This document shows positions 1-1,343 of a stretch of DNA of 1,343 bases, in pieces; within the stretch, counting starts at the first letter, position 1; each line of letters opens with the position of its first letter. Made by a program: the position numbers and the translations under genes. Where the stretch lies: assembly GCF_003334405.1 (NCBI RefSeq), contig NZ_QOWM01000045.1, one strand, 5' to 3'. Source of the stretch: Escherichia coli. GTDB lineage: Bacteria > Pseudomonadota > Gammaproteobacteria > Enterobacterales > Enterobacteriaceae. The notes beneath the pieces are model-generated. The model was not told the origin of the DNA. It saw only the letters and a list, made by a program, of their open reading frames with translations, and ran no database searches.

Positions 1-25
1 CCCATAAGCGCTAACTTAAGGGTTG
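1..25. repeat. Terminal inverted repeat at the transposase-distal end (IRR in element orientation)
   Basis: cccataagcgctaacttaagggttg at 1..25 is the exact reverse complement of 1319..1343. Identity stops at position 26 (a, versus t expected from the partner). It contains two 6-bp palindromes, AGCGCT (7..12) and CTTAAG (15..20). The outermost C residues may belong to the target rather than the element. Confidence 0.9.
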
Positions 26-32
26 AACCATC

Positions 33-84
33 TGAAGAATGCGACGCCTCGGTGCCTCGTTAAGACGATGCCTCGCGTTCTTCA
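33..84. other. Imperfect inverted repeat / potential stem-loop (12-bp arms, 28-nt loop) in the subterminal noncoding region
   Basis: tgaagaatgcga (33..44) pairs with tcgcgttcttca (73..84). The single non-Watson-Crick position (40/77) is a G-U wobble in plus-strand RNA and an A-C mismatch in minus-strand (transposase mRNA) RNA. No U-tract follows it on the minus strand, so it is not a classical intrinsic terminator. My rough estimate is that a match of this quality is only marginally unexpected by chance in a window this size. Confidence 0.3.
42..75. repeat. Three copies of a 10-nt motif CGNNGCCTCG in the noncoding tail between the transposase stop and the IR
   Basis: The copies are cgacgcctcg (42..51), cggtgcctcg (50..59) and cgatgcctcg (66..75). 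Eight of 10 positions are invariant, and the first two copies overlap by 2 nt. I did not find the core motif (GCCTCG or its complement CGAGGC) at the other end or elsewhere in the element by eye. Confidence 0.5.
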
Positions 85-173
85 ATTGCGTTTTGTAGGC
101 TGTCAGGGATACTGTCCCACGAATGGCCACCTGTAAGCTCCAGATGACCATTTTTGTTATTCTCCACAACGAG

Positions 174-1286
174 TTAGTTCTTCTTTTCGGATCCGGCACT
201 TCTGGGGGGGAAATCCAGCGATGGCTGGATTATGTCGTCAATTAAAAATGCGGCGAGTAGATTAGCAAATATCCACGCTTTCGCGAGTTCAGGTTCCTTT
301 GCACGCAAAGCATCCAGGTGCAGCAAACTTTTGAGCCGCTTAAAAGCCAGTTCAATTTGCCATCGCAGACGGTAACAATCAGCCACTTGCTCTGCTGAAT
401 ATTCATCTTCCGGTAATGATGTTAGCAATAGCACATGGCCCGCTGCTTCCAGCGTTTCCGCCTGAACTACTCGTCCTTTTCGACGATTCTCGCTGAGCAG
501 TCGGGTTTTACTGATTAATGCTTTTTCGGGAGGAAGTGATACGGCAATGAGACGTGCCGGAAAGGGAGCTCCGGCTTTTTTATTACCTGAATTGCCTATC
601 ATTACAGTGGTTTCACCGTTCTTACCGCAATCCAGCCCGCGCAGAAAACCCATCATGTCAAAGCGCATTCCTTCTGCAGTTAACCAGCGCAATCCTCGCC
701 AGTGAACCCGGACGATATAATCAGCTTCTCCAAAAGCAAGTGAGCGGATACATTCGGGACGCGAACCGAATCCCCGGTCAGCAATGCGTATCTCGTCTGC
801 CGTTTGCGCAAATCGGTCCAGCCGTTCAGCGTCTCTGCTGTCGGTTAGCTCAAAATCAGTGAACTGACAGGTATGAGGATCATATCCCATATGTAGTCGC
901 CATTCAGCGCTGCCGCCCCCGGGCGCACTGATTGCTGTTCCATCGACAAGACGCAATCTCTTTCCGCTTGTACAACCCGTAACTGCGGCGCGTACAGCAA
1001 GTGTTTGTGCGGCAAGTATGCCAAACCAGTCGGCGGCATTCCGCAGCCGCTTCAGGAGAGCCACGTCAGATAATGTTGCAACGTCATGGAGCTGAGCCCA
1101 TGCAGTGACTTCACGTAATGACATCCCCCCGGGGCCGTAAGCCAGCCCCAGACGTAGCAGAGTTGCAGCATCACGAATTTCGCGGCGGCGGGTTAGAGCC
1201 CCGGCATTACGTGCCGAAGTATCCAGTTCTTCGGGCTTACCAATATGGGCCAGAATTGCTGACCAGTTATCGTGAGAGTAATTCAT
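174..1286 (-). CDS. insL: IS186 transposase InsL (IS4-family DDE transposase), 370 aa, apparently intact
   Basis: The ORF runs from ATG (1284..1286, minus strand) to TAA (174..176). The ORF track begins 2 codons earlier at a GTG (1290..1292), but the recognised InsL protein starts MNYSHDNW, so I chose the ATG. The catalytic residues are all readable. D115 is in LVDGT (codon 942..944, gat). D170 is in IADRGF (codon 777..779, gac). E312 (codon 351..353, gaa) lies within Y305-R308-E312-K319, a perfect YREK motif (YRLRWQIELAFKRLK, 330..374). There are no internal stops or frameshifts. Confidence 0.93.
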   Translation of the reverse strand: MNYSHDNWSAILAHIGKPEELDTSARNAGALTRRREIRDAATLLRLGLAYGPGGMSLREVTAWAQLHDVATLSDVALLKRLRNAADWFGILAAQTLAVRAAVTGCTSGKRLRLVDGTAISAPGGGSAEWRLHMGYDPHTCQFTDFELTDSRDAERLDRFAQTADEIRIADRGFGSRPECIRSLAFGEADYIVRVHWRGLRWLTAEGMRFDMMGFLRGLDCGKNGETTVMIGNSGNKKAGAPFPARLIAVSLPPEKALISKTRLLSENRRKGRVVQAETLEAAGHVLLLTSLPEDEYSAEQVADCYRLRWQIELAFKRLKSLLHLDALRAKEPELAKAWIFANLLAAFLIDDIIQPSLDFPPRSAGSEKKN

Positions 1287-1292
1287 CGGCAC

Positions 1293-1321
1293 GTTAAATC
1301 ATATCAGGCGTAATACCACAA
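1293..1321 (-). promoter_or_regulatory. Candidate transposase promoter partly overlapping the IR (-35 TTGTGG, 17-nt spacer, -10 TTTAAC)
   Basis: The minus strand reads ...GGGTTGTGGTATTACGCCTGATATGATTTAACGTGCCGATG. TTGTGG is at 1316..1321 and TTTAAC at 1293..1298, with a 17-nt spacer. An overlapping TATGAT (1298..1303) is a better -10 hexamer but has no -35 at suitable spacing. Both hexamers are only partial matches to consensus, and this is pattern matching only. Confidence 0.25.
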
Positions 1322-1343
1322 CCCTTAAGTTAGCGCTTATGGG
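1319..1343. repeat. Terminal inverted repeat at the transposase-proximal end (IRL in element orientation)
   Basis: caacccttaagttagcgcttatggg is the exact reverse complement of 1..25. It lies 33 nt upstream (minus strand) of the transposase ATG. Confidence 0.9.

Follow-up and report, generated by a model that had tools for sequence, protein, structure and literature searches.

Where does the coding sequence of insL, the transposase gene of IS186, end? The question is raised by a stretch of 1343 base pairs (bp) of an Escherichia coli contig (NZ_QOWM01000045.1), analysed here as a whole and called the window, which is a complete IS186/IS421 insertion sequence (IS) with insL on the minus strand. 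IS186 is one of the four most active ISs in E. coli K-12, and mutations in laboratory evolution and in industrial strains are often due to it. The annotated gene stops shortly after a run of seven cytidines (C7), beyond which the +1 frame stays open almost to the end of the element. Through comparison with diverged relatives, we found that the tail protein, the frame break, a pyrimidine tract at the junction and a hairpin adjoining it are all conserved, which is the signature of programmed recoding. On these comparative grounds, IS186 would quite probably yield a 424-amino-acid (aa) transposase by recoding, whichever of two routes is used. The parts of the gene on which the argument turns are as follows.

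174..1286, minus strand: insL frame-0 open reading frame (ORF), 370 aa, ATG at 1286..1284 and TAA at 176..174, annotated as IS186/IS421 transposase.
204..213, minus strand: pyrimidine slip tract U3C7, with the U residues at 213..211 and C7 at 210..204; its last C is the third base of a frame-0 CCC codon (P361).
201..203, minus strand: frame-0 codon AGA directly after the run, which would occupy the A site with the last CCC in the P site.
14..202, minus strand: +1-frame tail, 63 codons, residues E362..S424 of the 424-aa trans-frame product.
11..13, minus strand: TAG that ends the +1 tail, located within the terminal inverted repeat (IR).

The G7 run that the initial annotation had placed at 204..210 (C7 in the mRNA) was confirmed at these coordinates. 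It spans the third base of the F359 codon together with P360 and P361, 9–11 codons before the insL stop, and the frame-0 C-terminus reads ...DFPPRSAGSEKKN before the TAA. The long open +1 frame described there was also recovered, with codon starts at 229, 226 ... 16, which makes 72 sense codons between the bounding stops 232..230 and 13..11; the second of these, the TAG, lies within the 25-bp perfect IR at 1..25 as had been proposed, and the 62-aa GTG ORF at 11..199 shares the frame. Deletion of one C from the run, which had been predicted to exchange the C-terminus for a basic tail, replaces the last 9 residues (RSAGSEKKN) by 63 (EVPDPKRRTNSLWRITK...QPLS; 13 K+R versus 3 D+E) and yields a 424-aa fused ORF. 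The probability that the given frame stays open over this span was 2.3–2.4%, as calculated from base composition and from 20,000 shuffles, in agreement with the few-percent expectation given earlier, and the probability that any of the three frames does so over the tail span was 7%. At P ~0.023 for a single sequence, the window alone is not significant, and significance comes from the relatives. Frame 0 of insL past its TAA is also open, for 37 codons (window 63..173, minus strand; next stop at 62..60); two of the three frames across the tail are thus stop-poor, and the frame-0 continuation shows no conservation in relatives.

Relatives were collected by a scan at one genome per species, which found 508 and from which 78 loci were kept, and four intermediate relatives of 61–71% identity were added from protein matches. 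Of 73 loci searched by tblastn with tail peptides, 62 had the tail shifted by +1 from the main ORF, 10 had it in frame 0 and one had it at −1; this last locus has an additional upstream frameshift, so that it is really of the +1 type. In total, the +1 tail was found in about 50 non-redundant relatives with 38–71% aa identity, belonging to Alpha- and Gammaproteobacteria, Acidobacteria, Gemmatimonadota and Pirellulales. After removal of duplicates, 49 unique +1 tails were aligned, which gave the consensus PP-x(10-15)-S-x-W-R-x-x-K-x(8)-A-I-x-G-x(15-20)-R-x-L-x-E-P-P-R-R-R-x-x-Q-x(5-9)-L-[ST]-stop with the W and R invariant. Three conserved motifs of this tail, and the terminal repeats that enclose the element, were located in the window.

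172..152, minus strand: conserved tail motif SLWRITK.
127..116, minus strand: conserved tail motif AIRG.
58..41, minus strand: conserved tail motif EAPRRR.
1..25: terminal IR at the insL 3′ end, 25 bp, perfect, with its partner at 1319..1343; it encodes the last Q-P-L-S-stop of the tail.
1319..1343: terminal IR at the insL 5′ end, a perfect 25-bp match to 1..25.

All 49 unique +1 tails were open for about 68 codons, while the other two frames over the tail span had means of 1.3 and 2.2 stops. The test for codon-level conservation suggested in the initial annotation gave a pairwise ratio of non-synonymous to synonymous substitution rates (dN/dS) of 0.33 in the tail frame (<1 in 99% of 167 pairs), compared with 0.94 and 2.06 in the other frames. 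The tail stop in relatives is usually 8–10 nucleotides (nt) from the IS end, within the conserved ...GCGCTAACTTAAG... IR; since the stop falls within the terminal repeat, the trans-frame ORF fills the element, as transposase genes usually do. Compared with its closest diverged relatives, whose main body is 61–71% identical to that of IS186 and whose tail synonymous sites are saturated, the IS186 tail has 40–55% aa identity, keeps every conserved motif and is open for 63 codons. The E. coli IS186 copies are nearly identical, so that selection is not measurable within Escherichia: window 1..300, the 3′ part of the element, is ≥99% identical in 2682/2725 matching records, these IS186 records come from 2168/5426 complete E. 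coli genomes, where the gene is annotated as ‘IS4-like element IS421 family transposase’, and the K-12 copies are identical to the window sequence.

The tail is covered by no Pfam or NCBIfam model. The NCBI Prokaryotic Genome Annotation Pipeline (PGAP) labels the small tail ORF ‘IS4 family transposase, partial’, and it annotates this 60–67-aa ORF separately in normal IS186 copies, where the homology is recognised and handled as debris. Searches of protein databases with the tail only, as a single sequence, by phmmer against 1.84 billion representatives and with a 48-tail profile, gave just E. coli-type small ORFs and low-complexity noise; these searches missed known in-frame relatives and were therefore not used for a census of fused and unfused forms. 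Several further loci in the collection deserve mention. The closest non-Escherichia relatives, at about 80% identity, are three loci of Candidatus Erwinia dacicola, all degenerate: L020 has a stop in the main ORF together with a C7 in-frame variant, L011 has a stop in the tail and L010 has an interrupted CCTCCC run, which fits the decay of an IS in the reduced genome of a symbiont. IS186 copies at 99–100% identity were found on nine short contigs, of low coverage where the contig name records coverage, in assemblies of a Prevotella metagenome-assembled genome, Serratia, Marinobacter, Staphylococcus cornubiensis, Corallococcus, Streptomyces, Streptosporangium, Leifsonia and Rheinheimera, and these most likely represent E. 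coli DNA contamination rather than horizontal transfer. In four distant relatives, the IR runs past the conserved CATAGGCGCTAAC... end into G-rich/C-rich flanks, for example GGGGAGAGGGTTGGGG; these flanks recall the reported IS186 target preference GGGG(N6/7)CCCC, which may be conserved across the clade.

Does any IS186-like transposase carry the tail as part of one continuous reading frame, as a longer ancestral protein would have done? Natural proteins of 425–442 aa, from Pseudovibrio, Paracoccus aminovorans and several metagenomes, have the homologous tail in frame, and their alignment with the conceptual IS186 fusion extends from one end to the other, junction included. The origin of the fusion is apparent in two cases: one element has C5 where its sister elements have C6, and the Paracoccus element has lost the T after C6, in a version that is present on 13 contigs from Logan read-run assemblies. 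In the neighbour-joining tree built from the main bodies, the in-frame elements were all tips nested among +1 elements, which indicates that at least 6–7 independent fusions occurred and that the +1 arrangement is ancestral and maintained. Where the fusion is old, the C run has been lost: in one long-fused lineage (L025) the C run has decayed, and in Pseudovibrio the FPP junction is absent altogether. The earlier suggestion of a relic was right in that the tail is homologous to the C-terminus of longer in-frame relatives, but the tail is not decaying; with 49/50 tails open, the low dN/dS in the tail frame and the motifs conserved, the decaying-relic explanation was rejected. Two ‘fused’ copies from Rhizobium (CP171853; L034 and L035) were not relied on because of possible homopolymer errors in a long-read assembly. 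In the same Rhizobium ruizarguesonis record (CP171853.1), the tail linker contains a second C run (GCTAG-C5/C6-ATTGG) that differs in length from copy to copy (L036 versus L037, at ~2590–2600), and these C-run differences, including C5/C6 at the main run, may be long-read homopolymer errors or real indel-prone sites.

What, then, is conserved at the place where the frames part? Junctions were anchored at the last C of the run, and their pyrimidine tracts were found to be about 10 nt long with varying composition: T3C7 in E. coli, T4C6 in E. albertii, T4C5 in Erwinia, and CTCTC6, CTCTTC5 or CTTTTC6 elsewhere. The comparison of run length among relatives that the initial annotation had called for therefore showed that C7 itself is not conserved, while the tract of about 10 pyrimidines is; the change from T3C7 to T4C6 in E. 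albertii leaves tract length unchanged. Codon usage at the junction is strongly skewed. In 49/49 junctions the run closes with CCC as the last frame-0 codon, which accounts for 26% of Pro codons in the rest of these genes. Codon −2 is either CCC or TCC; CCG, which makes up 50% of the Pro codons outside the junction, never occurs there. Codon −3 is TCT in 31/49, although the share of TCT among the other Ser codons is 5.5%, and TTT in 12. With TCC at codon −3 the tract would still be all pyrimidine, but the C run would grow to ≥8; the preference for TCT may stem from selection against a homopolymer that is too long and prone to mutation. The base after the run, which is synonymous in the +1 frame, is T in 47/49 junctions and A in the 2 from Escherichia, where the T-to-A change extends frame 0 by 9 codons. 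The codon after the run is TCT in 14, TGA in 12, TGG in 9, TGT in 7, AGA in 2 and others (TGC, TCC, TCG) in 5, and some relatives read F-P-P-stop in frame 0.

Directly upstream of the tract lies an RNA hairpin.

212..231, minus strand: RNA hairpin directly 5′ of the slip tract, with an 8-bp stem of AAUCCAGC (231..224) and GCUGGAUU (219..212) and the loop CAUC (223..220).
228..224 and 219..215, minus strand: conserved 5-bp core of the hairpin, CCAGC paired with GCUGG.

In IS186 this hairpin has a folding free energy of −10.8 kcal/mol (z −2.63) and abuts the U-C7 sequence. Among 53 unique junctions, 45 had a perfect stem of ≥5 bp with the 3′ arm ending exactly 11 nt before the run end, compared with a background of 12.9% at arbitrary ORF positions and with ≤13 at neighbouring offsets. 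The stems are built from 13 distinct arm pairs, for example CCAGC/GCTGG, CCGGC/GCCGG, CCGGG/CCCGG, CCCGG/CCGGG, CCCCG/CGGGG, CCAGG/CCTGG and CGAGG...CCTCG, of which IS186 keeps CCAGC/GCTGG plus the tract. In an ungapped alignment of 16 sequences, 80/80 stem cells pair, with both-side changes in two of the five pairs (13 cells), and the covariation score was 0.45 compared with 0.10 in shuffles, a value reached by 0/500. Pairing collapses when the partner columns are slid, and the amino acids encoded by the arms swap (GQVP versus PQVG) while the stem pairing is kept. Rfam had no match in the window, and no terminator-like or promoter-like site was found at the junction.

How would these elements join the two frames? 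In the scheme that we propose, the majority of transcripts or ribosomes would give the annotated 370-aa InsL, and a minority would change to the +1 frame at the hairpin/U3C7 site (window 231..204) and continue for 63 codons to the TAG in the terminal IR, producing 424 aa with a basic, helical C-terminal domain; the 370-aa form would then be a truncated by-product or a regulator. The fused protein, which the comparative data point to as the form on which selection has acted for very long, is hence probably the active transposase, and if the tail is required, recoding must occur in E. coli. The slippage-generated isoform considered in the initial annotation, at a low prior, is thus favoured by the comparative data, although the conserved signal is not C7 as such but a hairpin, a T/C tract of about 10 nt and a frame-0 CCC followed by T or A. 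Between the two routes, which give the same protein, transcriptional realignment is favoured, if tentatively. A nascent hairpin would form directly behind the RNA–DNA hybrid, RNA polymerase would realign forward on T3C7, and the resulting mRNA, one C short, would be translated normally; a pyrimidine constraint that extends for about the length of one hybrid agrees best with this route. A precedent is the IS630 element of Roseiflexus, where the hairpin GCGGGCgcaaGCCCGC adjoining T5C5 leads RNA polymerase to make transcripts one C short (Penno et al. 2015, as described in PMC5009743), and the sequence features of that system, namely a T(m)C(n) motif of about hybrid length, an adjoining 5′ stem-loop and a required loss of one nucleotide, are all present in IS186. 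Several points weigh against this reading. C-deleted transcripts, a 424-aa protein and ribosome footprints in 14..173 are so far predictions, and the dN/dS alignment was built from the tail-frame translation, which biases it somewhat towards the tail frame. The 30 nt upstream of the tract were not unusually stable compared with other windows of the same GC-rich ORFs (median rank of minimum free energy 0.40), so that the hairpin argument rests on position and covariation, and the distance from hairpin to run end is, in most relatives, 1 nt greater than in Roseiflexus. A realigned hybrid on the common CTCT-C6 tract would moreover have rC:dA mismatches in its upstream part, and such mismatches are poorly tolerated according to a review (PMC5009743). 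Finally, the near-invariant T, the CCC phase and the frequent TGA or rare codon fit ribosomal +1 frameshifting more naturally. That route, a possible one to which we give somewhat less credence, would have peptidyl-tRNAPro on CCC slip to CCC, CCU or CCA at a slow A-site codon (AGA in E. coli, and TGA, TCT, TGT or TGG in relatives), with the upstream hairpin refolding at the mRNA exit and pulling the mRNA by +1. The frame-0 CCC, constant in phase in 49/49 junctions, would allow the tRNA to re-pair in the +1 frame, the T (47) or A (2) after the run is kept at a position synonymous in that frame, and the next codon is often TGA (12), TCT (14) or TGT (7), the latter two being rare in these GC-rich genes, or else TGG (9) or AGA (2). 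AGA belongs to the rare codons of E. coli. Proven +1 sites include CCC_UGA and CCC_UCC in Listeria phage PSA, and E. coli pheL CCC_UGA shifts 15%, with the preceding Phe of importance (PMC5009743); the shift in the clade is uniformly +1, a criterion for ribosomal frameshifting in Antonov et al. (PMC3711429), and the Escherichia T-to-A change still leaves CCC-to-CCC re-pairing at the first Pro codon with six or seven Cs. Yet the constraint spans three codons (9–10 nt, all pyrimidine), which is more than a P site or E site needs, 5/49 junctions have common A-site codons (TGC, TCC, TCG), and no stimulator resembling a Shine-Dalgarno (SD) sequence was found at prfB-type spacing. The two bases after the T are, in addition, set by the +1-frame codon, so that A-site rarity may be a by-product. 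We know of no natural +1 site with an upstream hairpin as stimulator.

Other explanations would leave the 424-aa protein unmade in E. coli or would make it differently. That recoding is ancestral in the clade but unused in E. coli IS186, with the 370-aa InsL sufficing and the tail open through recent ancestry or weak residual constraint, is unlikely in our judgement: the 370-aa product does have the whole DDE/YREK core, no selection is measurable among the near-identical E. coli copies, and IS186 alone changed T to A after the run and so added the 9 frame-0 codons, but the tail has stayed open for 63 codons with all motifs at 40–55% aa identity despite saturated synonymous sites, the hairpin arms and the tract are retained, and the T4C6 of E. 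albertii keeps the tract length. Very little probability attaches to the tail being translated apart from InsL, by its own initiation or by reinitiation, as a small protein encoded by the 62-aa GTG ORF at 11..199 or by its counterpart in relatives. A GTG does occur at 199..197, two codons past the run, and the ORF is often called by gene callers and PGAP; against this, the 49 aligned tails have no conserved start near the GTG, their conserved part starts within the overlap, at PP, the transposases of natural relatives have the tail in frame at the C-terminus, and the PGAP name itself designates a partial transposase. Phase variation at the DNA level, in which replication slippage in C7 would switch copies between 370-aa and 424-aa genes, appears more improbable still. 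Run-length variants seemed at first to support it, since exact 424-aa (C6) and 425-aa (C9) proteins are in databases, on 130 and 12 contigs, and the 2718 E. coli records with IS186 include G7 in 2593, G6 in 146 and G8 in 42. But a control C6 run in the essential ORF body (1125..1130, within the C6G4 sequence CCCCCCGGGG at window 1121..1134) has been reduced to C5 in 78 E. coli records, frequently in assemblies that also have the run variants, which shows that homopolymer errors are frequent in deposited ‘complete’ genomes. The ratio of fused to standard forms was only 0.1–0.4% in contigs <200 kb, 1.25% at 0.2–1 Mb and 2.3% in those >1 Mb, an enrichment in Mb-scale contigs that is the pattern of long-read homopolymer error. 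Laboratory K-12 derivatives also show run variants, and relatives hold the tract length fixed while T and C interchange. After the control-run and contig-size analysis, these variants were dropped as evidence, and with them the phase-variable copy that the initial annotation had considered. A K-12 MG1655 assembly has such a variant at the dnaJ-proximal IS186 copy, called ‘frameshifted’ by PGAP, which marks G6 copies, that is, the in-frame 424-aa form, as ‘frameshifted’ pseudogenes (e.g., NZ_CP032667.1, 1501–2612). A chance off-frame opening without function, for which P ~0.023 for this sequence alone might have left some room, has practically none after the comparative data on tail conservation as protein in ~50 diverged relatives, dN/dS, hairpin covariation, the tree and codon bias, which refute it.

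The gene that recoding would extend has the marks of the IS4 family. Pfam DDE_Tnp_1 matches InsL residues 107–348 (E 2.4e-26), NCBIfam NF033592 (transpos_IS4_1) matches residues 17–350 above the cut-off, and the DDE/YREK catalytic core is located entirely within the 370-aa product. The YREK signature Y-(2)-R-(3)-E-(6)-K is present in YRLRWQIELAFKRLK, which contains Y305, R308, E312 and K319; in alignment A1, Y305, R308 and K319 are invariant and E312 is nearly so. The fused protein was modelled by AlphaFold2 with a predicted local distance difference test (pLDDT) score of 81.8 and a predicted template modelling score (pTM) of 0.81, and the tail was predicted to consist of a linker, helices at 373–389 and 394–408, and a basic disordered end. 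Foldseek against the PDB gave Tn5 transposase (1MUH and 1MUS) as top matches with E about 3e-9 and a full-length alignment; a profile search of PDB sequences gave no Tn5 match, which was obtained by the fold search alone. With a YREK DDE transposase, IRs around a single gene and a Tn5-like fold, IS186 is a member of the IS4 family. The +1-frame C-terminal domain departs from the description of that family, which is no ground for removing IS186 from it.

Dimerisation and synapsis of Tn5 transposase depend on the part of the protein that follows the catalytic Glu. Tn5 (IS50) and InsL share the same fold and both are YREK transposases, and by analogy the IS186 tail may mediate dimerisation or synapsis or, being very basic, may bind DNA; no sequence-level match was found between the two, and the tail is likened to the Tn5 dimerisation helices by this analogy only. 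The 370-aa product could likewise be an inactive or inhibitory form, although the Tn5 regulator Inh arises from alternative N-terminal initiation and not from C-terminal recoding.

How far does the junction resemble known recoding systems? It shares with the Roseiflexus IS630 element a GC-rich short-loop hairpin directly 5′ of a T(m)C(n) tract of about 10 nt in a transposase gene, the joining of frames by loss of exactly one nucleotide and the unidirectional shift. It differs in that the element is of the IS4/IS186 clade rather than the IS630 family, in that the shift adds a C-terminal domain of about 63 aa to a protein that already has its DNA-binding and catalytic parts, in the spacing of the hairpin from the run end (usually 11 nt in this clade, as here, versus 10 nt), and in the tract, which in the clade is often CTCT-C6 rather than a clean T5C5; slippage here is moreover proposed from sequence. 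Compared with the CCC_UGA/CCC_UCC sites of Listeria phage PSA tsh and cps and of pheL, and with prfB, the clade has the same frame-0 CCC followed by U, often in UGA or a putative slow codon, the same +1 direction kept across homologues and a C-terminally extended product, whereas a short-spaced SD-like stimulator is replaced by an upstream hairpin and a 10-nt pyrimidine tract, and IS186 itself reads CCC_CCC_AGA. Recoding is established in the IS1, IS3, IS5 and IS630 families (PMC5009743). There, as would be the case here, recoding by −1 frameshifting or by slippage on A/T runs sets the level of full-length transposase and the shorter frame-0 product may regulate; in those elements, an ORF for DNA binding is joined at A-rich motifs to a catalytic ORF that lies downstream of it, whereas the IS186 shift is +1, C-rich and adds a small C-terminal domain only. 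The DDE_Tnp_1 transposase sites of a genome-wide frameshift survey were all A/T-rich (PMC3711429), and the IS4 family has been described as being without frameshifts (PMC2266710). In the literature searched, recoding was not described for IS186, IS421 or the IS4 family, although an earlier mention elsewhere is possible, and the supplements of the IS4-family paper contained no text on IS186.

A conserved recoding signal that gives a C-terminally extended transposase is thus the most likely explanation, and it would be new for the IS4 family. The C7-bearing IS186 copies rank among the most active ISs of K-12 (PMC5009759), and in its strongest form, which we consider conceivable but more doubtful than otherwise, the interpretation would be that K-12 IS186 and a multi-phylum IS4 clade make their real transposase solely via an ancient hairpin/pyrimidine-tract signal. 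RNA polymerase slippage driven by a hairpin would then have its second natural case, and its first in E. coli, and the 370-aa InsL would be a truncated product, unable to complete transposition alone, that may regulate. If the active transposase is the 424-aa trans-frame protein, the standard annotation of 370 aa plus 173 nt of ‘non-coding’ tail would be wrong, and the absence of frameshifting as a hallmark of the IS4 family would have a multi-phylum exception. The rate-limiting step of IS186 transposition would then be a defined 30-nt signal that could be mutated to silence or to boost the element, and E. coli would offer a native model for hairpin-dependent RNA polymerase slippage or for hairpin-stimulated +1 frameshifting at Pro codons.

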